From the NCBI GenBank assembly GCA_963851265.1, contig CAWKNZ010000003.1, positions 160,001 to 224,000 on the forward strand: a stretch of 64,000 bases of DNA. Direction: 5' to 3'. Below the pieces are notes generated by a model, which was given only the letters and a program-made list of their open reading frames with translations, was not told where the DNA came from and did no database searches. Shown piece after piece: positions 2 through 61,886 of the stretch. Every line of letters begins with the position of its first letter. Within the stretch, counting starts at the first letter, position 1. Source of the stretch: an uncultured Gemmatimonadales bacterium (GTDB taxonomy: Bacteria > Gemmatimonadota > Gemmatimonadetes > Gemmatimonadales > Gemmatimonadaceae). A program made the translations under genes and the position numbers.

Positions 2-745
2 GCCGCGGGCGCGCTCCGCTACTGGGAGCGCCGCCAGGAAATCGTCGCCAACAACCTCGCCAACACATCGACGGACGGTTTCAAGGGCGACCGCGGCTAC
101 GCGCGCCTCGTCGGCACCGGCACCGCGGGCGAGAGCACGGTCGTCCAGAGCGCGGTCGACCAGAGCGCGGGCACGCTCCGCGAAACGCACAACCCGCTCG
201 ACCTCGCGCTGCAGTCGGGCGGATTCTTCGTCGTCCAGCCTCGTGCGGGCCAGGGCGCCGCGGGCAAGAGCGCCGCGGGTCAGGCCGCCGCGGGCGAGCG
301 CTGGACGCGTGCGGGGTCGTTCCAGCTCGACGCCAACCGGCAACTCGTCGACGCGGACGGCGCGGCCGTGTTAGGCACGACCGGCCCGATCACCGTCCCG
401 CCCGACACCACCGTGTCCGTCGGCCCCGACGGCACCGTGCGCGCGAGCGGCGCCGACGGCGGCAGCCGCGTCGTCGCGCAGCTGCGCGTCGAGCGCGCGC
501 CGGCCGGCGCCTCGCTCGCCCACGACGGCGCGACCCGCTTCGTGCCCGACCCCGCACGCCAGAGCGTGCCGCCCGCCGAGCGCCGCGTGCGCCAGGGATT
601 CGTCGAGGAGAGCAACGTCACCCCCATCGGCGCCCTCGTCGACATGATCGCCGTCCAGCGCGCCTACGCCTCGGTGCAGAAGGCCGTCACGACGATCGAC
701 GCCGTGCGCGGCGTCGCGACGAGCGAACTCGGCAAGCCCGTCTGA
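2..745 (+). CDS. flgF: Flagellar basal-body rod protein FlgF (5' truncated by window edge)
   Basis: Frame 2 reads AAGALRYWERRQEIVANNLANTSTDGFKGD (rod/hook N-terminal ANNLAN motif). C-terminus is EESNV..LVDMIAVQRAY. Lies directly upstream of flgG. Confidence 0.85.
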   Translation, partial: AAGALRYWERRQEIVANNLANTSTDGFKGDRGYARLVGTGTAGESTVVQSAVDQSAGTLRETHNPLDLALQSGGFFVVQPRAGQGAAGKSAAGQAAAGERWTRAGSFQLDANRQLVDADGAAVLGTTGPITVPPDTTVSVGPDGTVRASGADGGSRVVAQLRVERAPAGASLAHDGATRFVPDPARQSVPPAERRVRQGFVEESNVTPIGALVDMIAVQRAYASVQKAVTTIDAVRGVATSELGKPV

Positions 746-770
746 CCGCCCCCTCCCCAGAGCCCCGCCC

Positions 771-1568
771 ATGGATCCCGCGCTCCGCGCCGCCGCGAGC
801 GGCATGATGGCCCAGCAGACCCGCAGCGAGGTCATCGCCAACAACCTCGCCAACGTCAACACGACCGGCTTCAAGCGGAGCCGCGCGCAGTTCGAGGACC
901 TGCTCTACCAGACGGTCCAGGGCGCCGCCGTGATCGGCGCGTCGGAGAGCCAGACCACGCCCGCCGTGCAGGTCGGCCGCGGCACCCGCCTCACCGCGGT
1001 CACCCGGCTGCACACGCAGGGCATCCTCGAGACCACCAACCGCCCGCTCGACGTCGCGATCGAGGGGGAGGGCTTCTTCCAGGTCCAGACCGGCAGCGGC
1101 AGCGGCTCGCTCGCCTACACGCGCGACGGCTCGTTCCAGATCAGCGACCAGGGCGTGCTCGTGACGAGCGAGGGCTACACGGTCCAGCCGTCCATCCGCA
1201 TCCCCTCCGACGCGACCACCGTGTCGGTGTCGCGCACCGGCGTCGTCACCGCGACCCGCGGCAACGACACGTCCAAGCCCCAGGAGCTCGGCCGCATCGA
1301 ACTCGCGCGCTTCGTCAACCCCGCCGGGCTGCAGACCAACGGGCAGAACCTCTACTCGCCCACGCCGGCGAGCGGCGAGGCGCAGGCCGGCTTTCCCGGC
1401 GACGACGGCATCGGCTCGCTCGTCCAGGGTTCGCTCGAGGGGAGCAACGTCGAGATCGTGCAGGAGATGGTCGACATGATCACCGCCATGCGCGCCTACG
1501 AGATCAACTCGAAGGCGATCAAGAACAGCGAGGACATGTCCGACATCGCCGGGAACCTGGTGAAGTGA
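771..1568 (+). CDS. flgG: Flagellar basal-body rod protein FlgG
   Basis: SGMMAQQ..IANNLANVNTTGFKRSRAQFEDLLYQ, YTRDGSF and LEGSNVEIVQEMVDMITAMRAYEINSK motifs. Confidence 0.95.
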   Translation: MDPALRAAASGMMAQQTRSEVIANNLANVNTTGFKRSRAQFEDLLYQTVQGAAVIGASESQTTPAVQVGRGTRLTAVTRLHTQGILETTNRPLDVAIEGEGFFQVQTGSGSGSLAYTRDGSFQISDQGVLVTSEGYTVQPSIRIPSDATTVSVSRTGVVTATRGNDTSKPQELGRIELARFVNPAGLQTNGQNLYSPTPASGEAQAGFPGDDGIGSLVQGSLEGSNVEIVQEMVDMITAMRAYEINSKAIKNSEDMSDIAGNLVK

Positions 1569-2032
1569 TGCGGCCGCAATCGCCACGCCTCCGCCGCGCC
1601 CTGCGTTGGGCGCCCCTCCCGCTCCTCGGCGCCGGCCTCGCCGACGCGCGCGCGCTCGCGGCGCAGCCGACGCCCGCCGCCGTCGCACAGGGCCCGCGCG
1701 CCGCGCGCGCCCTCGCCCGCGGCGAGTCGCTCGCCGCGGGCGACATCGTCGCCGCACCGGGCGACACGCTCGCCCCGCGGCTCGTCGGCTGGACCACGCG
1801 ACGCGTGATCGCCGCGGGCGAGGTGCTCCACGCGCCCGCCGTCGCGCCGCCCGCCGCCGTGCGCGCGGGCGACCACGTCGCCGTCGTCTACCAGCAGTCC
1901 GGCGTCGCGCTCCGGCTCGCGGGCACCGCGGCCGCCGACGCCGCGTTAGGCGCCCGCGTGGCCGTGCGCGTCGACACGCGCCGCCGCTTCGAGGGCACCG
2001 TCACGGCGCCCGGCGTGGTGACGCTGCCGTGA
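1565..2032 (+). CDS. flgA: Flagellar P-ring formation chaperone FlgA (short, SAF-type)
   Basis: Signal-like N-terminus, ARALARGESL..RRVIAAGEVL..VRAGDHV..GTAAADAALG pattern, position between flgG and flgH. Confidence 0.8.
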   Translation: MMRPQSPRLRRALRWAPLPLLGAGLADARALAAQPTPAAVAQGPRAARALARGESLAAGDIVAAPGDTLAPRLVGWTTRRVIAAGEVLHAPAVAPPAAVRAGDHVAVVYQQSGVALRLAGTAAADAALGARVAVRVDTRRRFEGTVTAPGVVTLP

Positions 2033-6959: not shown

Positions 6960-8081
6960 CTACTCGCCGCCGTCGATGCGGAAGAGTTGGGTCGTCAGCG
7001 CCTTCGGGTTCTGCGGCTTGTACCAGTTCATGTCCTGGATGTGCGAGGCGGTCACGTAGACCGCGCCGTCCGGGCCCTGTGAGAACGTGTCGGGCCAGCG
7101 CAGCCGCGCGTCGCTCACGACCGGCGTCAATCGGCCGTCGGCCTCACGCACCTTCACCGCGTTGTCCTCGGGCGCGGAGACGTACAGCCGCCCCGCGGGC
7201 GTCATCCACAGCCCGTCGGCCACGTTCGTCGTCCCCACGCGCTCGACCCGGGCGGCCAGCGCGGCGGGCGCCAGGGAGGCGTCGCGCAGCGCGGCGGTGG
7301 CGATGCGGTAGAGCGTGCGGCCGGTGAGGGCCTGGTAGTACAGGTACTGCCCGTCGGGCGAGAGCGCGATCCCGTCCGACGCGAACTCGACGCCGCGTCC
7401 GTCGGGGCGGCGCAGCTCGCGCCCGTCCGCATGCACCACGACGTCCTTCTCCGCCTGCACACTCGGGTGCGCCGACAGAAGGCGGCGCGCCGTGCCCGCC
7501 TGCAGGTCGACCACGACCAGCGCGCCCTGCCCGCCCGAGTCGGTGATGTAGGCGGTGCCGCCGTCGGGGCTGAAGCGCACGTCGTTCAGGTACGACCCGT
7601 TAGGCGCGACGGTCGTGTCGAAGCGGATCGTCTGCGCGGGGCGGTTGCTCGCGAGGTCGATGCGCACCAGCTTCGGCCCGCCCGGCACGAGTGCGCCGTT
7701 CCCCGGCGCCGCCGGGTCGAGCACCCAGAGGTTCCCGCGCCGGTCGGCCACGACGCTCTGCACGCACACGAAGTGCGCGCCGGCCGCGAGCTGGTTCTTC
7801 TTCGCGTTCCGCCACGCGTTCCACTCGGCGTCGGGGTACGGGCGCACGCTCCCGTCCTTCATCACCTCCGCGACCGACACCGGCGCGTCTTCCGTCCAGC
7901 GCGGGAAGTTGACGAAGATGCGGCCGTCGGGCGCGACCGACACGCCGGTCACCTGGTGGCCGAACGTCGCGACCTGCGTGAGGCGTGCCGGCGCGCCACG
8001 CGCGGCAGCACGGGGCGCGAGGCGGGGGGCGGCTGCGAGGACGGCAGCGGCCGCGAGCGAAGCGACGGTGAACTTGGTCAT
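6960..8081 (-). CDS. Major royal jelly protein / yellow family secreted beta-propeller
   Basis: Signal peptide; GRIFVNFPRW, FVCVQSV, LWVLD, GGPKLV, SYLNDVR, AYITDSG, DGIALSPDG, LRWPDTF. Confidence 0.85.
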   Translation of the reverse strand: MTKFTVASLAAAAVLAAAPRLAPRAAARGAPARLTQVATFGHQVTGVSVAPDGRIFVNFPRWTEDAPVSVAEVMKDGSVRPYPDAEWNAWRNAKKNQLAAGAHFVCVQSVVADRRGNLWVLDPAAPGNGALVPGGPKLVRIDLASNRPAQTIRFDTTVAPNGSYLNDVRFSPDGGTAYITDSGGQGALVVVDLQAGTARRLLSAHPSVQAEKDVVVHADGRELRRPDGRGVEFASDGIALSPDGQYLYYQALTGRTLYRIATAALRDASLAPAALAARVERVGTTNVADGLWMTPAGRLYVSAPEDNAVKVREADGRLTPVVSDARLRWPDTFSQGPDGAVYVTASHIQDMNWYKPQNPKALTTQLFRIDGGE

Positions 8082-8843: not shown

Positions 8844-9701
8844 GTGTTCGTCGCCATCGGACTGCTGATCGTTTTCGGAAGCGTTATCGGCGGGTTCGTC
8901 ATGAACCACGGCCAGGTCGGCGTTCTCATCCAGGTCAACGAGTTTATCGTCATCGGCGGCGCCGCGCTCGGCGCGTTCGTGATCGCCAACGGGTTCGGCG
9001 CGCTCAAGGGCGCGCTCATGTCCACGATCGGGCTGCTCAAGCCCAACCCGTACGCCAAGGCCGGCTATTCCGAGCTGCTGCAGGTGCTCTACGAGACGTT
9101 CCAGAAGGCGCGCAAGGACGGTCTCGTCGGCCTCGAGTCGCACATCGAGGAGCCGGAGAAGAGCGACATCTTCTCCAAGTTCCCCGGCTTCGCGCACCAC
9201 CACCACGCGCTCTCGATGCTCGCCGACACCCTCAAGGTGCTGCTCTCGGGCGCGGTCGAGGACCACAACCTCGCCGAGATCCTCGACCTCGACCTCGACC
9301 AGCAGCTCGAGGCGAGCATGCACATCCCGCACGCCATCAACGGCGTGTCCGACGCGATGCCCGGGTTCGGGATCGTCGCCGCGGTGCTCGGCATCATCGT
9401 GACGATGGGCGCGATCGGCGGTGCGGCGAGCGAGATCGGCGAGCACGTGGCCGCGGCGCTCGTCGGCACGTTCGTCGGCATCCTCGTGTCGTACGGAGTG
9501 CTCGGCCCACTCGCCAAGGCCATCGAGGGGCGCGTGAAGGCGGAGCACGCGTACATGTGCTGCATCCGCACGGCGCTGCTCTCGTTCGCCCGGGGCGATG
9601 CGCCGATGACCGCGGTCGAGTTCGCGCGGCGCAACATCGACCCGCACGAGCGCCCGAGCTTCTCGGAGCTCGAGGGGCTCACGCGCAAGAAGGCCGCCTA
9701 A
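8844..9701 (+). CDS. motA: Flagellar motor stator protein MotA
   Basis: IGLLIVFGSVIGGF, EFIVIGGAALGAF, ARKDGLVGLESHIE, DAMPGFGIVAAVLG, AALVGTFVGIL, AVEFARR. Confidence 0.95.
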   Translation: MFVAIGLLIVFGSVIGGFVMNHGQVGVLIQVNEFIVIGGAALGAFVIANGFGALKGALMSTIGLLKPNPYAKAGYSELLQVLYETFQKARKDGLVGLESHIEEPEKSDIFSKFPGFAHHHHALSMLADTLKVLLSGAVEDHNLAEILDLDLDQQLEASMHIPHAINGVSDAMPGFGIVAAVLGIIVTMGAIGGAASEIGEHVAAALVGTFVGILVSYGVLGPLAKAIEGRVKAEHAYMCCIRTALLSFARGDAPMTAVEFARRNIDPHERPSFSELEGLTRKKAA

Positions 9702-9704
9702 CCC

Positions 9705-10984: not shown

Positions 10985-11340
10985 GTGGTCACCCCGCGAG
11001 GTCGGTGCGGGACGTACGGCGGGCGGTCGATCGGCGGGCGGGCATCGGGCGGCTCGGGTGCGTGGTGTTAGGCGGTGGACGGCGGGGCGGCTCGCGCCAC
11101 GCCGCCGGCGGGACGGCCTCACACAAGGCAGCGGTCGGGCCGCCCGGCGCGGCGCGCCGGCGCGGCGGGCATTCACGCCGTAAGTACATCGCCAGCAACG
11201 CTTTACGTTGCCGAAGCATAGAACGGCTCGCCGATGCGGGCGCGCGCCGAAGCCCGACCTGTTGCGGCGCTGCTACGCTTCTCGCAACACCGACGCTACT
11301 GGCGTCCTACGACACCCGCGGCGGGCGGAGGCGTCGGGCG

Positions 11341-13441: not shown

Positions 13442-14671
13442 TCAGGGGACGACGGGGATCTGCAGCGGCATCGTCGGCCACATCGTCGCGACCTGTGGCT
13501 GGCAGTCCTGCGCGACGACGGCGTAGATGAACGTGTTGGTGCTCGACGACGTCTGGGTGGCGAGCGGGGCGCGCTTCACGTCGTAGTCGACGTACGTGTA
13601 GACCTGCCCCGCGCGCCCGGCTGCGGGCACGTCGGCGATCGGGTTCGTGTACGGGGCGCCGTTGATCGACCGGTAGATGAGGTAGCGGTCGACGTCGCGC
13701 TCGCCCGCGCCGTCGTCGGTGACGGCAGTCCAGATCACCGTCACGTGGTCGGGGTTCCCGCTGTTCGACGCGAGGGCGGCGGCCGCCGGCGACGGGTCGG
13801 GCGCGGTGCCGCACGAGTTGCGGCGGAGCGCCGTCACGTTGATGAGCGCCGTACTCGCGCTGGCCGTGCGTTGGCCGAGCGCGCCGCCCCGCCGCGGGTC
13901 ACGGTACTGCCCCGCCGCGTTCACCACCACGACGCGCACCCGGTCCACCTGGGACGCGATGCGCCCGGTTTCGCCGGTGTCGGCCGGGGACCCGTGGGTG
14001 GCGGCGAGGTGCCGCAGGGGGAACGCGCTCGCGGGGACGGTGTCGAGTGCCGCCGTCGTGTCCTTGACCCAGACGTACTTGAAAAAGGGGTCGCCCGGCC
14101 TGATGTAGAGGCCGGTCGTGACGACGACCGGCGCGAGGCGGTTGACCTGGCGGAACAGCACGTATTCGTTAGGCCGCGGGCTGGACGAGTCCCGGCTCAC
14201 CCAGTACGACACGGTTTCGGCGAACGCGGGGCTGCCGTCGGAGAGGACGAAGGGCACCTGCGGGTAGCTCCCGAGCGCGCGCGGGAGCGTCACCGCCGGC
14301 GGCTGCAGCGCGACGGCCGCCGTGCTGTCGACGCTCGGGTCGTAGGTGATGGCCCAGATGTCGAGCGAGTCCTTCGCGTTGACGAGGTCGGCGTTGAAGG
14401 TGATCGCGTACGGGTCGGCCGCGACGAGCATCGGCTGCGTCGACAACGTGCCGGTGCCGATCATGCGGAGCTCGCGTTCGAGCGTCGTGATCGCGAATCG
14501 CGCGTTCTGCCCGGCGTCGCCCCGCGCCGCCGCGGCCGCGATCACCTTGGGCTGCCCGGTGACGAACGGCAGTGCGGCGCCGACGACGACCGCCGTGAGC
14601 ACGGCGGCGACGAGCAGTTCGGCGAGCGTGAAGCCGGGGCGCGCGCGCCGCGGGTGCGTGGGTGAGCGCAT
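13442..14671 (-). CDS. PilW-like minor pilin with C-terminal FN3-like region
   Basis: Class III signal RPG|FTLAELLVAAVL, QNARFAITTLERELRMIG, and C-terminal VTVIW..YLIYRS..YTYVD..YAVVAQD. Confidence 0.8.
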   Translation of the reverse strand: MRSPTHPRRARPGFTLAELLVAAVLTAVVVGAALPFVTGQPKVIAAAAARGDAGQNARFAITTLERELRMIGTGTLSTQPMLVAADPYAITFNADLVNAKDSLDIWAITYDPSVDSTAAVALQPPAVTLPRALGSYPQVPFVLSDGSPAFAETVSYWVSRDSSSPRPNEYVLFRQVNRLAPVVVTTGLYIRPGDPFFKYVWVKDTTAALDTVPASAFPLRHLAATHGSPADTGETGRIASQVDRVRVVVVNAAGQYRDPRRGGALGQRTASASTALINVTALRRNSCGTAPDPSPAAAALASNSGNPDHVTVIWTAVTDDGAGERDVDRYLIYRSINGAPYTNPIADVPAAGRAGQVYTYVDYDVKRAPLATQTSSSTNTFIYAVVAQDCQPQVATMWPTMPLQIPVVP

Positions 14672-14673
14672 GG

Positions 14674-15800: not shown

Positions 15801-16949
15801 CTACTCTCGCAGAAACGCCCCCAGCGGCGCGAGCGACGGCACGTGCTCGGCCAACACGTTGAGCGCCGCGGCCGCCGGCACGGCGAGGAAGACGCCGGCG
15901 ACCCCCCAGAGCGCGTATCCCGCGAGCACGGCCACGAGGATCGCGAACGGGTTCAGGCTCAGGCGCCGCCCGTACGCAATGGGGCTGACGAAGCTGTTCT
16001 GGAGGGTGCTGACGAGCAGGTACGTCGCGGGCGGCGCGAGCGCCGCGGCAACCGAGCCGGTCGACGCGAGGCCGACGACCGTGAGGCCGGCGACCATCAC
16101 CGCCGCGCCGAGGTACGGCAGCGTCTCGAGGAACACGGTCGCGAGGCCCCACAGGATCGGGCTCGGCACGTGCAGCGCCCAGAGGGCGAGCGCGACGACC
16201 GTTCCCTGCGCGGAGCTGATGAGCAGGAGCGTACCGAGGTAGCGCGCGACGTGCGCCTCGGAGGCGCGGACGACCTCGACGGCCGTACGCTTGGCGTTCG
16301 GGTCGTTCAGGCCGCCGACGAGGCGCCGCAAGAAACGGTCGTCGCCTGCCAGCAAGAAGTAGAGCAGGAGCAGCACCTCCGCCGCGCTCGCCAGCAGGCC
16401 GGCCGTCGTCCCGAACAGGTGCTGGATGGCCGTGCCGAGCGCGTTGGGTGGGACGCCGGGGATGGCGCCGGCCGCGGACCCGGTGCCCGCAGCGCCGCCG
16501 GCCGCCTGCGCCTCAGTCGCGCGGCGGCCCCGCGTGCGCGGGCCGGACCCGTCCACGGCCTGGGTCATGCGCTGCAGCGGGCGCCGGAGGTCGTCGAGGC
16601 GCGTGCGCGCCTTCGTCAGCAGCTGCGGCATCTCGGTGACGAGGTCGCGCGCGGGCTGCTCGAGCGCGATGCCGGCAGCGCCTAACGTCCCCAGGAGGGC
16701 GAGCATGACGACGGCCGCGCCGACGGGCACCGGGAGGCGGAGGTGGTCGCGCAGCCAGCGCACCACGGGGCGGAGCACGGACGCGAACGCGGCCGCGAGG
16801 CCGAGCGGGACGAACACGTCGCGCCCGGCCCAGAGCGCCCCTACGGCGGCCACCGCCGCGATGACCCCGACGCTGACAGTTCGGACGGCGTCGGGGGACC
16901 ACGCGCGGGAGAGTACGTGCGTCGGGGACTGCGGTTCGTCAGAGGTCAT
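15801..16949 (-). CDS. AI-2E family (PerM) transporter
   Basis: VFVPLGLA..LRPVVRWL, LLYFLL, LPYLGA, LQNSFVSPIAYGRRLSLNP, WGVAGVFLAVP. Confidence 0.88.
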   Translation of the reverse strand: MTSDEPQSPTHVLSRAWSPDAVRTVSVGVIAAVAAVGALWAGRDVFVPLGLAAAFASVLRPVVRWLRDHLRLPVPVGAAVVMLALLGTLGAAGIALEQPARDLVTEMPQLLTKARTRLDDLRRPLQRMTQAVDGSGPRTRGRRATEAQAAGGAAGTGSAAGAIPGVPPNALGTAIQHLFGTTAGLLASAAEVLLLLYFLLAGDDRFLRRLVGGLNDPNAKRTAVEVVRASEAHVARYLGTLLLISSAQGTVVALALWALHVPSPILWGLATVFLETLPYLGAAVMVAGLTVVGLASTGSVAAALAPPATYLLVSTLQNSFVSPIAYGRRLSLNPFAILVAVLAGYALWGVAGVFLAVPAAAALNVLAEHVPSLAPLGAFLRE

Positions 16950-19311: not shown

Positions 19312-21158
19312 GCGGCGGCGGGCCAGACGGCGCCGCCGCGTCGCCGATCCGCGCGGTCGCGTACCTCACGGCCGTGTCGCTGAAGAACCGGGTGCTCGTG
19401 CAACTGCGTCGCCTGCGCTCGCCCCGGGCGCTGGTCGCGGCGGCCGCGGGCGCGGCGTACATGTGGTATTTCCTGTTCCGGCAGGACGCGCGTTCGGCGG
19501 CCGGCTCGCTGCTGACCGGGGCGTCGTGGCCGTTGCGGGTCGCGGCGCTGGTCGCGTTAGGCTTCCCCGCGTTCTGGTGGCTCGCGCGCGGGGGCAAGGA
19601 GGCGTCGGGCGCGCTCGCGTTCACGCCGGCGGAAGAGTACCTCTTGTTCGCCGCGCCGGTGTCGCGTCGCGGACTCGTCCACTGGAAGCTGTGGCGGGCG
19701 CAGCTCGCCGTGCTGTTCAACACCGTGCTGTTCACGGTGCTGTTGCGCGGGGGCGCCGGGCACGCGGGGGCCTGGGCGCGCGCGCTCTCGCTGTGGCTGG
19801 TGTTCTCGACCCTGCAGCTGCACCGGCTCGCCGCGGCGCTCGTCACGGGGCCGGCCGACGGGCGGGGTGCGGCGGGTGGACGCGGGACGGCCGAGCGCGG
19901 CGGGCGCTCGGTCGTGGCGCGGTGGGCGCCGGCGGCGGTTCTCGCCGCGTTGGTCGGGGCCGTGGCGGTCACGCTCGCGCCGCGGGCGGGCGCGCTCGCG
20001 GCGGCGTGGGACGCCGGGTTCGGCGCGTTCGGAACGATGCTCGGCGCGGCGCTCGACCAGACGCCGGCGCGGTGGGCGCTCTGGCCCACGCGCGCGCTGC
20101 TCGCGCCGCTGTTCGCGCTCGGGGCCCAGGCCGCGTCGTATCAGGGCGTCGGCGGCGCGTTCGGCGACGTCACGGCACGACAGCGCTGGGCGGCGACGCT
20201 GCTCCCGGCGGTGCTCCTCGTCGCGGCGCATTACTTCTGGGTGATCCGCATCGACGCGCGCCTCACGGAGCTCGCCCTCGACGCGGGCGAGGCCAAGCGC
20301 CGCGCGCGCGCGAAGGCCCGCACGCGGGCGCCGGGCGCGGGGGCGCGACGGACGCTGCGGCTGGCGCCCGTCGGTCCACCCGCGGTCGCCCTGGTGTGGA
20401 AGAACTGGCTCGCGTTCACGCGGGCGACGGCGCTGGTGCGCGTGCTCACGCTCCTCGGGGTCGCTGCCGCCGGGACGCTCGCCGCGACGATGCGCAGTCC
20501 GCGGTTCGCGGAGCTGGCCACCGTCGTCGCGGCGACGTGGGGGGCGCTCCTCGTCGCCGCGGGACCGCTCTGGGTGCGCTACGACATCCGCCACGATCTA
20601 CCGCACCTGCCGTTCCTCAAGGCTGTGCCGATCGCTGGGCGGACGCTCGTCGCCGCGGAGATCACCGCGTCGGTGCTGGCCCTGACCGGAGTGCAGCTTG
20701 CGGCGCTCGCCTTTCTCCTGATCGCGGCGGCCGGCGCGCGGGACGAGTTCGGACTCCGGCCGGCGGAGCGCGCCGTGTATGCGCTCGCGCTCGCCATTGC
20801 GTTGCCGGGGTTGAACGCGGCGACGCTCACCGTCCAGAACGGGATCGCCCTGCTCTTCCCGGCCTGGGTGCGCCAGCCGGGGGGGAGCGCGCGCGGGATC
20901 GAGGCGACCGGACAGAACCTCGTCGGAACCGCACTCACACTCGCCGCGTCGGCCGTGCTGCTGGCGATCCCCGCGGGACTCGCCCTCGCCCTCGTGTGGG
21001 CGCTTCGACGCTCGGCCGCCGCCGCGCTCGGCCCGTGGCTCGCGGTGCCGGCCGCCGCGCTCTTCACACTCGGCGCGGCCGGCGTGTTGTGGCCCGTGGT
21101 CGGCTGGCTCGGCCGGGTGTTCGATCGCACCGATCCGATCGAGACGACGCCCGCGTGA
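19308..21158 (+). CDS. Putative ABC exporter permease
   Basis: Multi-TM protein overlapping the ATPase stop; FTPAEEYLLFAAPVSRR, ALVWKN, DLPHLPFLKAVPI. Confidence 0.8.
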   Translation: MSGGGPDGAAASPIRAVAYLTAVSLKNRVLVQLRRLRSPRALVAAAAGAAYMWYFLFRQDARSAAGSLLTGASWPLRVAALVALGFPAFWWLARGGKEASGALAFTPAEEYLLFAAPVSRRGLVHWKLWRAQLAVLFNTVLFTVLLRGGAGHAGAWARALSLWLVFSTLQLHRLAAALVTGPADGRGAAGGRGTAERGGRSVVARWAPAAVLAALVGAVAVTLAPRAGALAAAWDAGFGAFGTMLGAALDQTPARWALWPTRALLAPLFALGAQAASYQGVGGAFGDVTARQRWAATLLPAVLLVAAHYFWVIRIDARLTELALDAGEAKRRARAKARTRAPGAGARRTLRLAPVGPPAVALVWKNWLAFTRATALVRVLTLLGVAAAGTLAATMRSPRFAELATVVAATWGALLVAAGPLWVRYDIRHDLPHLPFLKAVPIAGRTLVAAEITASVLALTGVQLAALAFLLIAAAGARDEFGLRPAERAVYALALAIALPGLNAATLTVQNGIALLFPAWVRQPGGSARGIEATGQNLVGTALTLAASAVLLAIPAGLALALVWALRRSAAAALGPWLAVPAAALFTLGAAGVLWPVVGWLGRVFDRTDPIETTPA

Positions 21159-23471: not shown

Positions 23472-23569
23472 CCGTACCGCCGTCTGCGGACGGTCGCGCC
23501 GAACGCGCGAGCGGGCGGCGCTCGGTGCGCCGCCCGCTCGTCATTCGGAACGCGGGGTGTACGCCGCGA

Positions 23570-24726: not shown

Positions 24727-24740
24727 GCGTCGCCGGTGCG

Positions 24741-24977
24741 TTAGGCGGCGAGCTGGGTGCCGTGGGCCGGGCGCCAGCCGCGCGAGCGGCGGCCGGTCTT
24801 GATGAGTTCGAAGCGTGCCGGCGGGAAGCCGTGGACTCCGATCTCCAGCGTGTCGCCGAGATGGGCCTCGGCCTGCTCGGCGATCGCGTCGAGCGCCTCG
24901 CGGAACGAATCGCTGGTCACCGCGCCGGCTTCGCGCACGGTGCCTTCGTTGGCGAGGGAGAACTGGAAGCGGGGCAT
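24741..24977 (-). CDS. Small hypothetical protein (78 aa)
   Basis: MPRFQFSLANEGTVREAG..LEIGVHGFPPARFEL, with CAGGAG RBS upstream. Confidence 0.7.
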   Translation of the reverse strand: MPRFQFSLANEGTVREAGAVTSDSFREALDAIAEQAEAHLGDTLEIGVHGFPPARFELIKTGRRSRGWRPAHGTQLAA

Positions 24978-34802: not shown

Positions 34803-35167
34803 GCGAGCTGCTCCTCGACGCTCCGCGTCCGCGCGTCCACGACGTCGCCGGTGTGGCGTGTGGCCGCGGGCTCGAACAGGAGCAGCCAGCACTCCTCGTC
34901 GGCCACGGGGTTGTGCCGGACGCCGCGCGGCACGACGCAGCACTCGCCGGGCCCGAGCGTCACCGTCCCGCCCTCGAACTGGATGGCGAGCGAGCCGCGC
35001 ACGACGAGAAACATCTCGTCCTCGCCCGCGTGGTCGTGCCAGACGAACTCGCCCTTGAGTTTGGCGGCCTTCACGTACTGCCCGTTCAACTCGGCGATCA
35101 CCTTGGGCGACCAGTGCTCGGTGACGCGGTCGAACGCGCGCTCGATGTTGATGGCGGCGGGGAGCAT
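34799..35167 (-). CDS. Cupin domain protein
   Basis: WSPKVIAELNGQYVK..GEFVWHDH..EDEMFLV..VPRGVRHNP..FEP..TRHTG. Confidence 0.9.
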   Translation of the reverse strand: MLPAAINIERAFDRVTEHWSPKVIAELNGQYVKAAKLKGEFVWHDHAGEDEMFLVVRGSLAIQFEGGTVTLGPGECCVVPRGVRHNPVADEECWLLLFEPAATRHTGDVVDARTRSVEEQLA

Positions 35168-49409: not shown

Positions 49410-51319
49410 GTCACCCTCCCGGAGGGCGTCCCAGCCCCGACCAAGCTAGCCGAGTCGCCGCCCACGGCCGAGCCCGGGCGCCCGGGCGCCGAGGGCACCC
49501 GCACGCGGACCTCCGCCCCGCCCCGCGCCGCATCGCCCACCACCACGCTCCCGCCTAACGCCCCGATCCGCTCGCGCATGCCGACGAGCCCCATGTGCCC
49601 GTCGCGCTCGTAGCGCGCGAGGTCGGCCGGCGCGCCGAGGCCGGCGCCGTCGTCGCGCACGGTGAGGGCAAGGCCGCCCGATTCGCGCGCGAGGGCGACG
49701 GCCACGCGCGTCGCCCCCGCCGCGTGCCGCGCGACGTTGGACAGCGCCTCCTGGACGGCGCGGAAGAGGGCGAGGTCGGCGTCTTCGGGGAGGGCCGGGA
49801 GGGTGTCGGGCACGTCGAGCGCGACGGCGATGCCGGTGCGCTCCTCGAAGTCGGCGGCGAGCGAGCGGAGCGCCGGGAGCAGGCCGAGGTCGTCGAGCAG
49901 CGACGGGCGCAGGGCGTTCGTCACGCCGCGGATGCTGCGGATGCCCGTGTCGATGAGGCCGAGCACGCGGTCGAAGCGCGCGCGCTGCGCCTCGCGCTCG
50001 CCGTCGTGCGCGGGGTCGCGCGGCGCGTCGCCGCCGGGGTCGCGGCCGGCGAGGTCGCGCAGGACGCCGAGCTGCATCTTCACCGCCGAAAACACCTGCG
50101 CCGTCTCGTCGTGCAGCTCGCGCGACAGTCGGCGCCGCTCGTTCTCGTGCGCGCGGAGCATGCGCGACGAGAGGCGCTCGAGTTCCGCCGTGCGCGCCTC
50201 GAGCGCGTGGTAGAGGGCGGCCGAGTGGAGCGCCGCGCCGACCTGCTGGCCTAACGCGCGGAGGAAGCTCTCGTCGAGGGCCGTGAACGGGTCGCGCGCC
50301 TCGCCGGCGAGGACGAGCGCGGCCTCGGGCGCCCCCTCGGGCGCCCCCTCGGCCGGCACGGGGAGCGCGGCGACCGAGGCGTGGCCGGCGATCCCCTGCG
50401 CGACTTCGGGGCGCCCCGTCGCCCGGAGCCTGCCTAACAATGCGGCGAGCGCCCCGCCGGGCTCGGTGCCGCTCCACCCGGCGCACGTGCCCGCCCCCGC
50501 CGCGCAGACGAAGTGCGCCGCGCCGTTCGCCGCCGCGCCGTTCGCCGCCGGGGAGACGACGTAGTACGCGGTCCCGCGCACCGCCGGCAGGGACAGCGGG
50601 CGCGCGAGGAGGGCCGCGAGCGGGTCGGCGAGCTGCGGGGCGCGCTGCAGGTCGCCCGACAGCGCCGAAAGCGCGCCGAGTCCGCGGCGCAGGTCGTCCA
50701 TCACGAGGAGCATGATCCCGCCGCCCACGGCGAGCTCGAACGCGATGTCGAGGTAGTAGCCCCACGGGCTCCACGCCCCGCGCGCGCGGAGGAACGGGTA
50801 GTCGAGGTGGTGCAGCGCCCAGAGGCCGAACGCCACGCCCAACACGAGCGCGCCGGCCGAGCCGACCTGGCGGTGGTAGCGCCAGAAGGCCGCGCCCGCC
50901 CACGCCGTCGCGAGGGCGAGGAAGACGACCATCGGCGCGGCCGCGAGCGCGAAGTTGTCGAGCCGGTAGATGGCGACGAGCGACCACGCGGTCGGGAAGA
51001 GCGCGGCCGCGAGGTACCGCCAGCGCCACGCGAGCTGCCGCGAGAAGACGAGCGCGGCCCAGAGCAGGGTGAGCGCCGTGAGGCCCGTGACCACCTGGTG
51101 CAGGTACAGCCACTCGCGCTCGCCGCGGACGAGGAAGCTGCCGATCGCGACGAGGCGCACGACGTAGAGCGTCCAGGCCGCCGCGAACCACGCGAAGTAG
51201 GGCTTGCCGTGCCGCCGGTACAGGAACAGGCAGAGCAGGCCGAGTCCGGCCGTGATCGCGGTCTGGAGCGCGGCGGCGGCGAACTCGGTGCGCGCGAGGT
51301 CGGGCAGGTGCCAGGGCAT
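49406..51319 (-). CDS. Membrane sensor histidine kinase (HisKA_3)
   Basis: Multi-TM N-terminus and GAF-like linker; ENERRRLSRELHDE, LRPSLLDDLGL, QEALSNVARH, DDGAG, GLVGMRER. Confidence 0.93.
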   Translation of the reverse strand: MPWHLPDLARTEFAAAALQTAITAGLGLLCLFLYRRHGKPYFAWFAAAWTLYVVRLVAIGSFLVRGEREWLYLHQVVTGLTALTLLWAALVFSRQLAWRWRYLAAALFPTAWSLVAIYRLDNFALAAAPMVVFLALATAWAGAAFWRYHRQVGSAGALVLGVAFGLWALHHLDYPFLRARGAWSPWGYYLDIAFELAVGGGIMLLVMDDLRRGLGALSALSGDLQRAPQLADPLAALLARPLSLPAVRGTAYYVVSPAANGAAANGAAHFVCAAGAGTCAGWSGTEPGGALAALLGRLRATGRPEVAQGIAGHASVAALPVPAEGAPEGAPEAALVLAGEARDPFTALDESFLRALGQQVGAALHSAALYHALEARTAELERLSSRMLRAHENERRRLSRELHDETAQVFSAVKMQLGVLRDLAGRDPGGDAPRDPAHDGEREAQRARFDRVLGLIDTGIRSIRGVTNALRPSLLDDLGLLPALRSLAADFEERTGIAVALDVPDTLPALPEDADLALFRAVQEALSNVARHAAGATRVAVALARESGGLALTVRDDGAGLGAPADLARYERDGHMGLVGMRERIGALGGSVVVGDAARGGAEVRVRVPSAPGRPGSAVGGDSASLVGAGTPSGRVT

Positions 51320-51446: not shown

Positions 51447-52847
51447 ATGTTGCGTCATGGTCGCGCGCGCCTCGGAATCCTCCTGGGGGCGGCGCTCGGC
51501 GCGTGCCGGTCGGCGCCTCCAGCGCCGCCGGCCGCGCCGACGCCGGCGACGGTCGTGCTCGTGTCGCTGGACGGCTTTCGCGCCGACTACCTCGACCGCC
51601 GACTGCCGCTGCCCGCGTTCGCGCGGCTCGAGGCGGCGGGCGTGCGGGCGCGGGCGCTCGTGCCGAGCTTTCCGAGCAAGACGTTCCCGAACCACTGGAC
51701 GCTCGTCACCGGGCTGCGGCCGGGACGCCACGGCATCGTCGCCAACGCGTTCTGGGACCCGGTCACCCGGCGCGAGTACCGCATCCGCGACACGGCCGCG
51801 GTGCGCGACGCGTCGTGGTATGGCGGCGTGCCGCTGTGGGCGCTCGCGGAGCGCGCCGGCATCCGCACCGGGACGGTGTTCTGGCCGGGGTCGGAGGCGC
51901 CGGTGGGGGGCGTGCGCCCGTCGCGGTGGCTGCGCTACGATGGCGCGATGCCCGACTCCGCGCGCGTCGACACGGTGGTCGCGTGGCTGGCGCTGCCGGC
52001 GGCCGAGCGGCCGCGGTTCGTGGCGCTGTACGTGAGCGTGGCGGACGACTCGGGGCACGCCGCGGGCCCCGACGCGCCCGCGACCGACAGCGCGGTCGTC
52101 GAGGCCGACCGTACGTTAGGCCGCCTGCTCGACCGGCTCGACGCGATGCCCGGAGGCAACGCGGTCGACGTGGTGGTCGTGAGCGACCACGGCATGGACG
52201 CGGTCGCACCCGAACGCACCGTCGATCTGTCGCGGTGCGACCGGCGCGACGCGTTCGCCGACGCGCGCACGGGCGACGCGGGGCCGGTGCTCTCGATGTG
52301 GTTCGACGAACCGGGTGGCGGAGTGGCGGGGGGCGACGCCGCGGGGACCGACGCGGCGTCGCGGGCGGCCAACGCGGAGGCGGTACTGCGGAGCTGCCTC
52401 GCCCCCGCCGCCGCGGGCGCGCCCTTCAATCCGCTGGCCCACGCGCGCGTCTACGCGCGGGCGGAAACGCCCGCGCGCTGGGCGCTGCGCGCGCAGCCGC
52501 GGGCGGGCGACCTGCTCATCGTCGCCGACTCGGGGTGGACCGTGGTGCCCGCGCCGCCCGCCCGGCCGCTGCACGGCGGCGGCCACGGCTGGGACCCGGC
52601 CGCAGACCGCGCGATGCGCGCCATCTTCCTTGCGGCGGGTCCTCACGTGCGCGCCCGCGGCGAGATTGCGGCCGTCGAGAACGTCCACGTCGCCCCCTTC
52701 CTCGGCGCGCTCCTCGGCGTCGCCTGGCCGGCCGGGGCGACCGACGGCGACGTGCGCGTGCTCGCGCCGCTCCTCGACGTCCGACGGCTGCGGGCGCGCC
52801 GCGGCGGCACGCGCGGCCGCGCCGTGCCGACCGCCGGACCGTCCTGA
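51447..52847 (+). CDS. Alkaline phosphatase superfamily nucleotide pyrophosphatase/phosphodiesterase
   Basis: VSLDGFRADY, FPSKTFPNHWTLVTG, D..GH..GP, VSDHGM, HGWDP. Confidence 0.93.
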   Translation: MLRHGRARLGILLGAALGACRSAPPAPPAAPTPATVVLVSLDGFRADYLDRRLPLPAFARLEAAGVRARALVPSFPSKTFPNHWTLVTGLRPGRHGIVANAFWDPVTRREYRIRDTAAVRDASWYGGVPLWALAERAGIRTGTVFWPGSEAPVGGVRPSRWLRYDGAMPDSARVDTVVAWLALPAAERPRFVALYVSVADDSGHAAGPDAPATDSAVVEADRTLGRLLDRLDAMPGGNAVDVVVVSDHGMDAVAPERTVDLSRCDRRDAFADARTGDAGPVLSMWFDEPGGGVAGGDAAGTDAASRAANAEAVLRSCLAPAAAGAPFNPLAHARVYARAETPARWALRAQPRAGDLLIVADSGWTVVPAPPARPLHGGGHGWDPAADRAMRAIFLAAGPHVRARGEIAAVENVHVAPFLGALLGVAWPAGATDGDVRVLAPLLDVRRLRARRGGTRGRAVPTAGPS

Positions 52848-52909: not shown

Positions 52910-54355
52910 GTGCCCCGCCCGATCTTCCGCTCCGTCGCCGCCGCCCTGCTCACCGCCGCGTCGGCGCACGCGGCCGCCGCCCAGGCGCCCGCGGCGCGGG
53001 TGCCCGGCGCCGACTCCGGCCGCTACGCCGGCTACCAGCCCGCGGCCGACCGCATCGTCACCGCGGCGATGGCCGACAGCACGGCCTGGCGGCGCGTGGC
53101 CGAAATCACCGACGCCTACGGGCCGCGCCTGTCGGGGTCCGACGCGCTCGAGCGGGCCATCGACCGGATGCTCGCGATGCTCCGCGCCGACGGCCTCGCC
53201 AACGTGCGCGGCGAGCCGGTGATGGTGCCGCACTGGGTGCGCGGCGAGGAGCGCGCGGAGCTCGTCGTGCGGGACGCGCGCGGGGCGGTCACGCGACGCA
53301 AACCGCTCCACGTGCTCGCGTTAGGCGGGAGCGTCGGCACGCCCGGCGCCGGGGTCGAGGCGCCGGTGCTCGTCGTGACGAGCTTCGACGACCTCGCGCG
53401 GCGGGCGGGCGAGGCGCGCGGGCGGGCCGTGCTCTTCGACGTGCCGTTCACCACGTACGACCAGACGGTGCGCTACCGCGCGCTGGGCCCGAGCGCGGCC
53501 GCGCGCGCCGGGGCCGTGGCCGCGCTCGTCCGCTCGGTGACGCCCAATTCGATGGACTCGCCGCACACGGGCGCGCTGCGCTACGACACCGCCGCGGCGC
53601 GCATCCCCGCCGCGGCGGTCACGGTCGAGGACGCGGAGCTGATGCACCGCCTGCAGGACCGCGGGCTCACGCCGACCGTCAGTCTGCGGCTCGGCGCGCA
53701 GACGCTGCCCGACGCGCCGTCGCGCAACGTCGTGGCCGAGCTGGTCGGGCGCGAGCGGCCCCAGGAGTTCGTCGTCCTCGGCGGCCACATCGACTCGTGG
53801 GACGTGGGCCAGGGCGCGATGGACGACCTCGGCGGCTTCGTCGCGGCGTGGGAGGCGGTGCGCCTGCTCAAGCGGCTCGGCCTCACCCCGCGGCGCACGG
53901 TGCGCGTGGTGGGGTGGACGAACGAGGAGAACGGGGGCCGCGGCGGCCGCGGCTACCTCGCCGCGCACCGCGCCGAGCTGGCCGACCACGTGTTCGCGAT
54001 GGAGAGCGACAACGGGGTGTTCCGGCCGAGCGGGATGCGGCTGGTGGGCACCCCCGCTGCGGTGGCGCAGGTCGCGCCGCTCGGCCGGCTGCTGCGCGCG
54101 TTAGGCGCCGCGGCGGCCACCGCGGGCGAGGGGGAAGCGGACATCGAGCCGCTGCTCGCGGCGGGCGTGCCGGGGGCCGCGCTCGACGTCGACGGTTCGC
54201 GCTACTTCTGGTATCACCACACGAACGCCGACACGCCCGACAAGCTCGACCCGGCCGACGTGGCGCGGTGCGTGGCGACGTTCGCGGTGTGGGCGTACGT
54301 GCTCGCCGACGCGCCCGACCGGCCGCCGCACGGGGCGCCGGCGCCCGGTCGGTGA
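52910..54355 (+). CDS. M28 family metallopeptidase (carboxypeptidase Q-like)
   Basis: GPRLSGS, SPHTG, GGHIDSWDVGQGAMDD, NEENG, ESDNG, YFWYHHT.AD. Confidence 0.93.
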   Translation: MPRPIFRSVAAALLTAASAHAAAAQAPAARVPGADSGRYAGYQPAADRIVTAAMADSTAWRRVAEITDAYGPRLSGSDALERAIDRMLAMLRADGLANVRGEPVMVPHWVRGEERAELVVRDARGAVTRRKPLHVLALGGSVGTPGAGVEAPVLVVTSFDDLARRAGEARGRAVLFDVPFTTYDQTVRYRALGPSAAARAGAVAALVRSVTPNSMDSPHTGALRYDTAAARIPAAAVTVEDAELMHRLQDRGLTPTVSLRLGAQTLPDAPSRNVVAELVGRERPQEFVVLGGHIDSWDVGQGAMDDLGGFVAAWEAVRLLKRLGLTPRRTVRVVGWTNEENGGRGGRGYLAAHRAELADHVFAMESDNGVFRPSGMRLVGTPAAVAQVAPLGRLLRALGAAAATAGEGEADIEPLLAAGVPGAALDVDGSRYFWYHHTNADTPDKLDPADVARCVATFAVWAYVLADAPDRPPHGAPAPGR

Positions 54356-59415: not shown

Positions 59416-60666
59416 GTGCCGCGTCTGCCCATTCTCTTCCGCCGGGCCGGCCGCGATGCCGCCGTGCGCGGCGCGCTCGCCCTCCGCGCCCCCGCGCTCG
59501 CGCTGCTCGCCGGCCGGGCGCCCGACGCCGCGGGCCGTGCCGCGCTCGGCGCGCCCGCGGCCGCGTGGGAGCTGTTCCTCGCGGCCGAGTGTTGCGCGAT
59601 CCCGGTGGCGCGCGCGCTGCGGATGGTCGGCGCGTGGGACTCGCTCTCGCCCGACGCCCGCGCCGCCGTCGCCGCCGCGGAATCGCGCGAGATGCAGCGC
59701 GTGCTGGCCGCGCGGGGGCAGCTGGCGGAGCTCGACCGCCTGGCTGCGGCGTTTGGCGTGATGCCGATCGTGCTGAAGGGCGGCGCCACCGTCGCCGAGG
59801 GCACCGCGCTGGACCTCGGCGACATCGACCTGCTCGTCACGGGCGACGTGGCGGCCACGCTCGCGGCGGCTCTCGTCGCGCGCGGGTACGCGCCCTCGGG
59901 TGACGCGCTGGTGCGCCCCGGGGCGCTGCCGATCGAGCTGCACGACCACGTGTCGTACGGCCGCGCCGGGGGCGCCGGCGACCGGGCCGCGCGTCCGGCC
60001 GAATCGTGCGCGGCGGGACCGTGGACGGGTGCGTCGTGTGTGTCCCTCGCGTGCGCCGACGAGCCGCCGCTGGTGCCGCTCGCGGGCTGCCGCGCGCTGC
60101 GGCGGCTCGTCGGCGCGCCGGCTGTGCTGCTGCTCCTCCGCCACGGCGTGCTGCACCACCCGTTCCGCCGCGGCCACCTGCGCGACCTCGTCGTGCTCGC
60201 GGAGGCGATCGGGCGCTGCACGCCCGACGCGGTCGACGCCGTGTCGCGGGCGTGCGCGGCGGATCCCGATGCGGCGGACCTCACCGAGACCCTCGCGCTC
60301 GCGCTGGCGATCCGCGCGGGGGCGGACGTCGCCGACCCGCCCGCGGTGCGGCGGATGGCGACCCACAAGTACCTGTTCGCGCTCGGGACGTGGCGGCGCG
60401 CGGTGCGCATCGCGCCGCGGTGGCCGACGCTCCTCTGCGCGGCGATCGACCGTCCCGCGGCCCGCCACGCGCCGCTTCGCGACGCGCTCGCGAGTCGGGA
60501 GCAGACGGACCCGCACTGGGAATTGCGCCGCCTGGCGAGGCACGCGCCGAGGCTCGCGGCGGCCGCGCGTGGCGCGGCGCGCCTTCCGTACCGCGTCGTA
60601 CTCGTGCTCTGCGCGCTCGGCGCGGGCCCGTTCGCGCGCCGCCGGGTCGCGCGCCTCGCCCGCTGA
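59416..60666 (+). CDS. Nucleotidyltransferase-family (NTP_transf_5-like) protein
   Basis: PIVLKGG..GDIDLLV..L..RGY..IELH..H..HH..LRDL. Confidence 0.8.
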   Translation: MPRLPILFRRAGRDAAVRGALALRAPALALLAGRAPDAAGRAALGAPAAAWELFLAAECCAIPVARALRMVGAWDSLSPDARAAVAAAESREMQRVLAARGQLAELDRLAAAFGVMPIVLKGGATVAEGTALDLGDIDLLVTGDVAATLAAALVARGYAPSGDALVRPGALPIELHDHVSYGRAGGAGDRAARPAESCAAGPWTGASCVSLACADEPPLVPLAGCRALRRLVGAPAVLLLLRHGVLHHPFRRGHLRDLVVLAEAIGRCTPDAVDAVSRACAADPDAADLTETLALALAIRAGADVADPPAVRRMATHKYLFALGTWRRAVRIAPRWPTLLCAAIDRPAARHAPLRDALASREQTDPHWELRRLARHAPRLAAAARGAARLPYRVVLVLCALGAGPFARRRVARLAR

Positions 60667-60860
60667 CGCAGCGACGGACCGGGCCGTCGGTTAGAACCTG
60701 GGTGCGCGATTACTCACGATCGCACGCGAAGTTCCACGGCCCGGTACGCCTTTGTGAGATCTTTACGACGGGTTGATGCCACGGGGCCGTGCGCAGGCGG
60801 AGTATACGGGAGCGTCCCCGGTACGCCGGCGCCGCGTCTCCTCACTTCCCGCCCCGTCCC

Positions 60861-61886
60861 ATGCCCGTCCGGTTCACCACCGCTCGTCGCGGCACCCTCC
60901 GCGCGTCCGCCGCCCTCGCCGCCGCCTGCGCATTCGCGGCGTGCACCGACGGCGCCACCGCCCCGTCGGCCAGCAGCAATCTGTCGCCCGACGGCCCCTC
61001 GCTGAGCGCGGCGCCCGAGCTCAACCCCGGTGTGCGCCACGTGCACCACGTGCGCGACTACAGCGCGACCCACAACGCCGGGACCGGGACGGGCATCTCG
61101 TACCACGGCGGCGCGCTGCTGACCGCGCAGACCAACGTCGCGGCCGTGTACTGGGGCGGGAGCCCGATCTATACGAACGGCCCCGCCGCGGGCACGCACG
61201 GCGCCGGATCGACCGACGGGTCGCTCGTCGGCTTCTTCCTGAGCCACATCGGCGGCTCGCCGTACTTCAACATCAACACGACGTACTACAACGCCTCCGG
61301 CACGCACGTGGCGAACGTCGTCAACTACACGCAGTACTGGGCGGCCAACACGAGCGTGCCGGCGTCGGGCGCGAGCGTCACCGACGCGCAGATGGTCGCC
61401 CTGCTGCAGGCCGGCATCAACAGCGGGGCCCTCACGTACGACGCCAGCACGGTCTACGCGATCTTCACGGCCGGCGGGGTGAACCTCGGCGGCGGGTTCG
61501 GGACGCAGTACTGCGCGTACCACACGACCGGCACCGTCACGGTGAACGGCGTGTCGCGTTCGGTGATCTACGCCGCGATGCCCTACAACAACTCGCAGCC
61601 GTCGGCGTGCACCGCCGGCACTGGCGCGCCTAACGGCGACCCCGGCGCGGACTACGAGGTGACCACCCTCGTCCACGAGATCGAGGAGAGCACCACCGAC
61701 TACCTCGGCAACGCCTGGTACGACCGCTCGGGCAACGAGAACGCCGACAAGTGCGCGTGGAACTTCGGCGCCACGGCCAGCGCCACGAACGGCGCGAAGT
61801 ACAACATCACGATCGGCGGGAAGAACTTCCTCGTGCAGCAGAACTGGGTGAACGCGGGGACGGGCGGCTGCGCGCTGAAGTACTGA
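60861..61886 (+). CDS. EXORDIUM/phosphate-induced protein 1 (Phi-1)-like lipoprotein
   Basis: FAAC lipobox; ISYHGGALL..YWG, YCAYH, PNGDPGAD..HEIEE..TD..AWYD..ENADKC..NFLVQQNW. Confidence 0.8.
   Translation: MPVRFTTARRGTLRASAALAAACAFAACTDGATAPSASSNLSPDGPSLSAAPELNPGVRHVHHVRDYSATHNAGTGTGISYHGGALLTAQTNVAAVYWGGSPIYTNGPAAGTHGAGSTDGSLVGFFLSHIGGSPYFNINTTYYNASGTHVANVVNYTQYWAANTSVPASGASVTDAQMVALLQAGINSGALTYDASTVYAIFTAGGVNLGGGFGTQYCAYHTTGTVTVNGVSRSVIYAAMPYNNSQPSACTAGTGAPNGDPGADYEVTTLVHEIEESTTDYLGNAWYDRSGNENADKCAWNFGATASATNGAKYNITIGGKNFLVQQNWVNAGTGGCALKY

Follow-up and report, generated by a model that had tools for sequence, protein, structure and literature searches.

To our knowledge, sequence-specific 'self words' that shape whole genomes have been described in very few clades, namely Neisseriaceae, Pasteurellaceae and, with HIP1, cyanobacteria. 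DNA uptake sequences (DUS) and uptake signal sequences (USS) are found throughout their families, with dialects, and Neisseria has a dedicated DUS receptor, a ComP-type minor pilin. USS and DUS have no orientation bias and lie mostly within genes (PMC1939737, excerpt). According to an excerpt of PMC7811141, molecular drive should lead to an even distribution of USS, a pair of USS less than 100 bp apart gives no extra uptake, and newly acquired segments have fewer USS than expected. Here we describe the word GTTAGGC and its extended form CGTTAGGC in a stretch of 64,000 nucleotides from an uncultured Gemmatimonadales bacterium (the window; G000:C3:160001-224000), in its source genome (G000; assembly of 4.60 Mb, 12 contigs, 73-74% G+C) and in the genomes of the family. 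Among named sequences, the best matches to ParB of G000 come from MAGs labelled Gemmatimonadaceae (55-67% identity). The word appears to be undescribed: among the papers listed by the literature searches, none describes the 7-mer or the 8-mer, an uptake sequence in Gemmatimon* or natural competence in Gemmatimon*.

The window holds 26 exact copies of GTTAGGC (17 on the plus strand, 9 on the minus strand), for a mean of 1.91 and a maximum of 7 in dinucleotide-preserving shuffles, none of which reached 26 in 100 trials. The form CGTTAGGC accounts for 20 of the 26. TTAG/CTAA occurs 34 times in total, 26 times within the word and 8 times elsewhere, and in the called genes of the window just two in-frame TTA codons, at 39317 and 49161, are not part of the word. 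An earlier note, made from the letters of the window, had given these same figures for the copies and their positions, their extension to 8 bp, the other TTAG/CTAA contexts and the two remaining TTA codons, and the recount returned each of them. In the whole of G000 there are 1,762 copies (885 plus and 877 minus), whereas an order-2 Markov model expects 96, i.e., an 18-fold excess that places the word first among all 7-mers by both z-score and ratio. These copies comprise 71% of the about 2,470 genomic TTAG. In the flanks, C is found at -1 in 70% and G at +1 in 50% of the copies, and the logo of TTAG contexts is flat further out. The one-base neighbours of the word are at or below expectation, with the exception of GTTGGGC (2.2-fold enriched). 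The highest-order Markov model expects 861 copies and in this sense 'explains' the 7-mer, because the component 6-mers are equally enriched. The called coding sequences hold 1,057 copies, for 60.5 +/- 7.2 (maximum 73) in 20 synonymous-codon shuffles, an excess of about 17-fold; the gene calls are crude, with 2,657 open reading frames (ORFs) picked by the periodicity of G+C at third codon positions (GC3) and covering 75% of the genome.

The force behind the word acts at the level of DNA, not of protein. In the called genes, TTA occupies 771 of the 4,495 G-Leu-GGC sites (17%) but only 321 of the 101,624 other Leu codons (0.32%), so that 771 of the 1,092 in-frame TTA sit in G-TTA-GGC. The odds ratio between the two contexts is about 64, which would correspond to a scaled advantage near 4 if read in terms of mutation, selection and drift. 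On the antisense strand, CCT is used at 182 of the 946 G-Pro-AAC sites (19%) and in 3.3% of the cases elsewhere, and CTA at 64 of the 728 nGC-Leu-ACn sites (8.8%) and in 1.1% elsewhere, while GCC-TAA-C accounts for 95 of the 321 TAA stops. The word is thus mostly placed as G-TTA-GGC (Leu-Gly), but also as CCT-AAC, in CTA codons, in TAA/TAG stops and in spacers. Sense copies outnumber antisense copies by 3.5 to 1 because Leu-Gly is common, which reflects opportunity and not a strand preference. The conclusion on DNA-level action follows from the equal occupancy of synonymous sites on the sense (17%) and antisense (19%) strands; a codon or tRNA effect is ruled out by the antisense contexts and by the mutual exclusion between sense and antisense copies. 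The signal proposed in the earlier note, which had placed it in the DNA and not in protein or tRNA, therefore stands, because the enrichment persists over codon-preserving shuffles and TTA is concentrated in G-TTA-GGC instead of being equally used elsewhere.

The word saturates locally. In G000, 78 intervals between copies are shorter than 300 bp, for 191 under a Poisson distribution. When the 771 TTA sites were redistributed over the 4,495 opportunity sites, the expected pairs were 19.5 within 100 bp and 52.7 within 300 bp, and the observed ones 0 and 13. The occupancy of G-Leu-GGC sites depends on the distance to the nearest copy: it is 1.0% below 100 bp, rises to 4.3% and then 11% in the next two bins (100-200 and 200-300 bp), to 17-18% between 300 and 750 bp and to 23-25% between 0.75 and 2.5 kb, and is 5% beyond 5 kb. 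Direct and inverted close pairs are equally depleted. The hazard of meeting a further copy plateaus from about 200 bp in G012, a relative with a higher density of copies (296-kb sample with 1.44 copies per kb and 62.6% G+C). Copies thus exclude one another over about 200 bp in G012 and over about 500-750 bp in G000, a range that scales with density, unlike a fixed footprint. There is no avoidance of long gaps, and the hazard falls beyond 4 kb in G000. The density also rises with local G+C: regions below 70% have 2.0-2.5 copies per 10 kb, and those above 76% have 5.5. This is the opposite of what composition predicts: the word is rarer in low-GC, atypical DNA.

The search of relatives suggested in the earlier note revealed a patchy distribution of a single word. 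We tallied a sample of 151 genomes of the family, many of them incomplete and three unpublished (G011, G047, G093); absence in these searches means that a feature was not found with the query used. All five genomes of the genus are rich in the word (977 to 3,304 copies). In the family, 29 of the 151 genomes have at least 1,000 copies of CGTTAGGC (maximum 6,360), some of them at 63-64% G+C, and many others have fewer than 30, which is below the control given by the reversed word. The signal is thus lineage-specific, as had been claimed, since it is found throughout the genus and lacking in most of the family. Between congeners, identity is 87%, 90% and 71% at codon positions 1, 2 and 3. Of the copies of G000 that could be aligned, those aligned to G004 are shared in 44 of 89 cases and those aligned to G001 in 34 of 63, for a neutral expectation of about 22% for a 7-mer in the same phase. 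On 119 kb aligned between these three genomes, 22 sites are common to all three, 32 to two of them (9, 10 and 13), and 68 are lineage-specific (19, 27 and 22), when a star tree with losses only predicts 15.5. Where a site is specific to one lineage, both of the other genomes often have GCTCGGC, or both have GTTGGGC. It follows from this excess, and from the non-word codon that the other two genomes often share, that each of the three lineages is still gaining copies, often by two substitutions. Turnover is fast, as about half of the sites differ between congeners.

These statistics match the published features of uptake sequences, which is why we rank first, with a probability of about 0.4, a molecular drive resembling that of uptake sequences, where the bias would lie in DNA transfer. 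(C)GTTAGGC would then be a lineage-specific 'self word' of double-stranded DNA, and an active, strand-symmetric and locally saturating process would create and keep exact copies of it wherever coding allows. Some step in the transfer of DNA between relatives would favour the fragments that bear the word, most likely uptake through the encoded machinery of type IV pilus, ComEA, ComEC and DprA; packaging into a transfer particle would have the same outcome. Homologous recombination would then replace word-less alleles with word-bearing ones. If one word per fragment suffices, a second copy nearby would gain nothing, and if DNA fragments in soil are short, this would lead to a high density and a short range of exclusion. 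That the bias lies in DNA transfer, and which protein would read the word, are matters of inference. Competence is thought to be common among abundant soil bacteria (PMC7305173, excerpt).

Genes for DNA uptake are encoded in the genome. G000 encodes three PilT-family genes, a PilM/O/Q locus with a PilQ-like secretin and a PilA-like gene, DprA, ComEC, and a comEA-like gene (HHH_3) directly upstream of pilB (MshEN+T2SSE), pilT and pilC (G000:C7:759600-772500). The same order of comEA, pilB, pilT and pilC is found in G114 and G063, two genomes poor in the word. The genes that are specific to rich genomes beside comEA-pilB-pilT were rejected as candidates, as the extra genes (MlaD, MlaE, LptF/G) reflect a difference in synteny only. 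Downstream of the cluster in G000 lie remnants of type I restriction (HsdR-type and N6_Mtase fragments, in several frames) and a GmrSD-type nuclease. A pilin-like pattern matches 8 ORFs, of which 7 are plausible pilins. The window itself has two pilin-like ORFs on the minus strand within 11436-15779, one with an N_methyl motif (14674-15180) and one with a prepilin-like N-terminus (15087-15779), adjoined by a gene for a protein of 792 aa with no Pfam match (11436-13814, minus strand). The latter was discarded as a receptor, because its homologues are found in 77 of the 151 family genomes, in rich and poor alike (in a search with a stricter first pass).

Several observations weigh against a drive through DNA transfer. 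ComEC passes the cut-off in 27 of the 29 rich genomes but also in 100 of the 122 others, and PilT, PilQ-like, ComEA-like and DprA genes are likewise found in poor genomes; hence the uptake genes permit the reading without singling it out. The word has 7-8 bp, when the cores of DUS and USS have 9-12 bp. Its spread is uneven across the family and even inside a genus (3,896 and 4,141 copies in two genomes of g53, 66 in a third), always as a single word without dialects: in 100-kb samples of four poor genomes no other hyper-abundant word takes its place, with top z-scores of 7-11, while the word itself reaches 30-65 in rich genomes, and so dialects were rejected for these samples. Only 26 of the 1,750 intervals in G000 (1.5%) are below 100 bp, while in Haemophilus influenzae 23% of the USS lie within 100 bp of another (PMC7811141, excerpt). 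Three points speak against simple membership among DUS/USS: the patchy occurrence of one word, the small number of copies that lie close together, and the fact that the system is known here from sequence. More generally, most of the statistics are also predicted by selection for the sites of an intracellular protein with diminishing returns.

A last difficulty is the largest word-free stretch of G000, which spans 45 kb (C1:182,876-227,962) and has a Poisson chance of about 5e-5, as estimated from the spacing. It encodes gidA/mnmG, parA, parB, mnmE, an ABC transporter, a GGDEF-EAL protein and Ada. We rejected three accounts of this block. It is not a mobile element or island, given its core genes (GidA, ParA, ParB, MnmE), nor a conserved desert around the origin, given that the orthologous regions of G004, G001 and G052 have a normal density of the word. 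It is also not a detectable import, given that its identity between G000 and congeners (about 74-81%) matches that between G004 and G001 (78.0%), without incongruence. An import from an unsampled congener poor in the word is possible.

The word could alternatively be the binding site of an abundant intracellular protein, for example one that organises the nucleoid, or a self-marker for defence or repair, and be maintained by ordinary selection with diminishing returns. We regard this as possible but rather unlikely. Among the functions listed in the earlier note, an uptake tag and a nucleoid-protein site are the two that our tests leave standing. It would account well for the sharp definition of the word, for its strand symmetry and local saturation, for the conservation of shared sites above the neutral rate and for the depletion in atypical DNA, and the patchy spread of an identical word would reflect the gain and loss of one protein. 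It fits less well with a range of exclusion that varies with density, unlike a fixed footprint, with the tolerance of long gaps (the falling hazard beyond 4 kb and the copy-free 45-kb core block) and with the fast turnover of the sites. No candidate protein was found.

It is distinctly unlikely that the word is an integrase core or secondary site, GTTRRRY, read or spread by an IntI-type recombinase or by another integron-linked factor. The fit to this consensus (PMC10127599, excerpt), on which the earlier note had remarked, holds for the letters, and in G000 at least six attC-like hairpins (C10:188,936-212,085) have this 8-mer as both of their cores. Others lie at C6:34252 and C9:56165. The attC-like hairpins of G000 span 73-121 nt, and there is at least one cassette array. 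The copies found in two poor genomes (G021, G023) are mostly in minus-then-plus pairs about 83 nt apart, which resembles cassette arrays, and IntI (TIGR02249) passes the cut-off in 90 of the 151 family genomes (60%). Yet IntI does not track the word: it is found in 19 of the 29 rich genomes and 71 of the 122 others, so that the integrase was rejected as the reader, and the richest genus, g9 (G012, G090 and G136, all fragmented assemblies), has no full IntI. The match in G000 itself is partial (C6:5244-6044, model positions 2-265). Across the genome the copies lack attC-like flanks, with a logo flat beyond +/-1; only a handful of the minus-then-plus pairs 66-121 nt apart fold. Among the small number of very close pairs are five perfect hairpins that carry the word in each stem, as well as several attC-like sites. 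Moreover, off-target recombination by integrases is likely deleterious (PMC10127599, excerpt) and predicts depletion, not enrichment. What stands of the integron match is thus the letters and the local hairpins, and a recombination site tied to the integrase is unsupported.

It is a striking coincidence that a family rich in integrons should have a word identical to their core. Integrons have been noted in the phylum, and 10-20% is the rate given for proteobacterial classes (PMC8618304, excerpt); the rate of 90/151 in this family is high by comparison. A combined scheme, which seems to us very doubtful, is that a signal for uptake or transfer deliberately uses the letters of the integron core: with a receptor for competence that is tuned to attC cores, gene cassettes would be imported preferentially, molecular drive would spread the word along the chromosome, and hairpins of two inverted words at gene ends would be proto-attC. 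If true, inverted words at gene ends would offer a way for new integron cassettes to arise, which is an unsolved problem.

A single identical word with a patchy spread also resembles HIP1 in cyanobacteria. The word might accordingly be left behind by a DNA methyltransferase that acts together with biased repair or biased gene conversion, as has been proposed for HIP1 or is known from very-short-patch repair; mismatches would then be repaired towards the word. Such a process acts on DNA in a strand-symmetric way, and GTTGGGC, the neighbour that is enriched, is one transition away, but we consider it improbable. The families searched were PF03852 (Vsr), PF00145 (C5 methylase), PF01555 and PF02384. 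Neither Vsr nor C5 methylase was found in three rich genomes (G000, G061 and G151, 94-97% complete), which led us to reject a hotspot of m5C deamination or a Vsr-type repair; in the two poor genomes tested, C5 methylase is found in both (G114, G063) and Vsr in G063 only. N6/N4 methylases were rejected as readers because no family is common to the rich genomes: PF01555 was not found in G000 or G061, and PF02384 is present as fragments only in G000 and was found in neither G061 nor G151. Biased repair would also leave the suppression of new copies within 300 bp unexplained, and in many gains the starting codon is CTC, two changes away. The earlier option of a motif maintained by a methyltransferase has thus lost support. 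We also observed a contrast among five genomes: in the rich G000, G061 and G151, C5 methylase, Vsr and RecC are missing and N6 methylases are few or broken, and the poor G114 and G063 have intact ones. In so small a set this may be due to chance.

A polar signal like Chi (RecBCD/AddAB) or the FtsK-orienting polar sequences (KOPS), to which a non-palindromic 8-bp word found once per few kb and a cumulative strand count that turns at about 0.8 and 1.35 Mb on contig C2 might point, is close to refuted: the turns coincide with changes in gene-strand bias (48%, 79% and 25% of the genes on the plus strand in the three segments) and are explained by it, the density of sense copies on C2 shows no consistent preference (0.20-0.21 per kb in plus genes, 0.17-0.30 in minus genes), the strands are balanced genome-wide, RecC (PF04257) was not found in G000, G061 and G151, and an alpha-type AddB was found in none of five genomes, in a search that covered this type and not other AddAB or AdnAB types. 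The polarity that the earlier note had envisaged therefore reduces to gene orientation, and this option loses its support. An apparent extreme polarity, with runs of 25-26 hits in genomes of genus g52 and of 11 in G004 that were all on the plus strand, was likewise discarded as an artefact of the order in which hits were given: the DNA itself has plus/minus counts of 50/33, 28/28 and 24/39. At about 1.35 Mb on C2, the flip of gene-strand bias from 79% to 25% plus resembles a replication terminus; GC skew is weak throughout.

The 26 copies of the window are listed below. The caller based on GC phase assigns 16 to nnG-TTA-GGC, 2 to nnG-CCT-AAC and 3 to GCC-TAA stops and leaves 5 unresolved; 12 of the 26 lie outside any called gene. 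The earlier tally of 17 Leu-Gly, 4 Pro-Asn, 4 stop and 1 intergenic copies is compatible with these assignments once the ORFs around the unresolved copies are inspected, to the extent that frames could be fixed, which was not the case for every copy.

Table. Copies of the word in the window, with their coding context (positions in the window).
Positions	Strand	Form	Context	Basis
370..376	+	GTTAGGC	nnG-TTA-GGC, Leu-Gly	GC phase
1945..1951	+	CGTTAGGC	Leu-Gly in ORF 1565-2032 or Val-Arg in ORF 1606-2727, frame ambiguous	ORFs
7599..7605	+	CGTTAGGC	nnG-CCT-AAC, Pro-Asn, antisense to gene 6960-8081 (-)	
9696..9702	-	GTTAGGC	GCC-TAA stop of ORF 8367-9701 (+)	
11067..11073	+	GTTAGGC	antisense to ORF 10556-11176 (-), frame ambiguous	
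14168..14174	+	CGTTAGGC	nnG-CCT-AAC on - strand	GC phase
16680..16686	-	CGTTAGGC	Leu-Gly, AI-2E-type transporter gene 15801-16997 (-)	
19556..19562	+	CGTTAGGC	Leu-Gly on +	
22598..22604	+	CGTTAGGC	Leu-Gly, gene 21246-23471 (+)	
23466..23472	-	GTTAGGC	GCC-TAA stop of gene 21246-23471 (+)	
24740..24746	+	CGTTAGGC	TTA reads on the opposite strand as the TAA stop of ORF 24741-25874 (-)	
26380..26386	+	CGTTAGGC	Leu-Gly on +	
27426..27432	+	CGTTAGGC	Leu-Gly on +	GC phase
31452..31458	-	CGTTAGGC	Leu-Gly, gene 29757-32027 (-)	
33072..33078	+	CGTTAGGC	Leu-Gly on +	
34798..34804	+	CGTTAGGC	gene end, includes the stop codon of ORF 33414-34802 (+); stop context by the phase caller	
35689..35695	+	CGTTAGGC	Pro-Asn, antisense to ORF 35185-35715 (-)	ORF call
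35912..35918	-	GTTAGGC	Leu-Gly on - strand	
40535..40541	+	CGTTAGGC	Leu-Gly, gene 39864-41159 (+)	
49553..49559	-	CGTTAGGC	Leu-Gly, gene 49406-51448 (-)	
50249..50255	-	CGTTAGGC	Leu-Gly, gene 49406-51448 (-)	
50432..50438	-	GTTAGGC	Leu-Gly, gene 49406-51448 (-)	
52115..52121	+	CGTTAGGC	Leu-Gly on +	
53320..53326	+	CGTTAGGC	Leu-Gly on +	
54100..54106	+	CGTTAGGC	Leu-Gly on +	
61628..61634	-	CGTTAGGC	Leu-Gly on - (GC phase) or GCC-TAA stop of ORF 60773-61633 (+)	

A second group of 7-mers containing A/T is over-represented 7- to 11-fold relative to the order-2 Markov model, with TTGTAGA, TAGTAGA and ACTACTA in G000 and CTACTAC in samples of three poor genomes (G006, G043 and G152). This group probably comes from Tyr-rich peptide contexts.

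If the word is driven by biased DNA transfer, it would add a third or fourth clade with a 'self word', in an abundant and mostly uncultured phylum of soil bacteria, and such drives would be more widespread than thought. It would also give a direct handle on gene flow among soil bacteria and a simple marker to tell native from imported DNA in word-rich genomes. Genera that combine both states, e.g., two rich species and one poor, as with G061 and G151 (rich) and G114 (poor), would provide natural contrasts for finding the reader protein. In a family where integrons abound, a word with the letters of their core may connect transformation with the capture of cassettes.

The known systems share different parts of this pattern. 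Chi, KOPS and the SpoIIIE recognition sequences (SRS) are also non-palindromic words of about 8 bp with a density at the kb scale, but here any polarity vanishes when gene strand is taken into account, the word is much more strongly enriched, and RecC was not found in the three rich genomes searched. The integron core has identical letters, and attC-like hairpins of G000 carry the 8-mer at both ends; the chromosomal copies differ in being bare words in conserved genes, without a hairpin partner, and in an abundance that is independent of the integrase. HIP1 is likewise an identical short word, hyper-abundant in some lineages and near-absent in others, that lies in coding DNA. It differs in being a palindrome linked to methyltransferases, whereas GTTAGGC is asymmetric and occurs in rich genomes without the methylase families tested. 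With DUS and USS, the word shares its nature as a short exact sequence in thousands of copies, on both strands and without replichore polarity, located mostly in genes and in several frames. As in these systems, the spacing is fairly even, a close second copy adds nothing, copies are rarer in atypical DNA, the word is shared by related species with turnover, and a few inverted pairs form hairpins; genes for the pilus, ComEA, ComEC and DprA are present as well.

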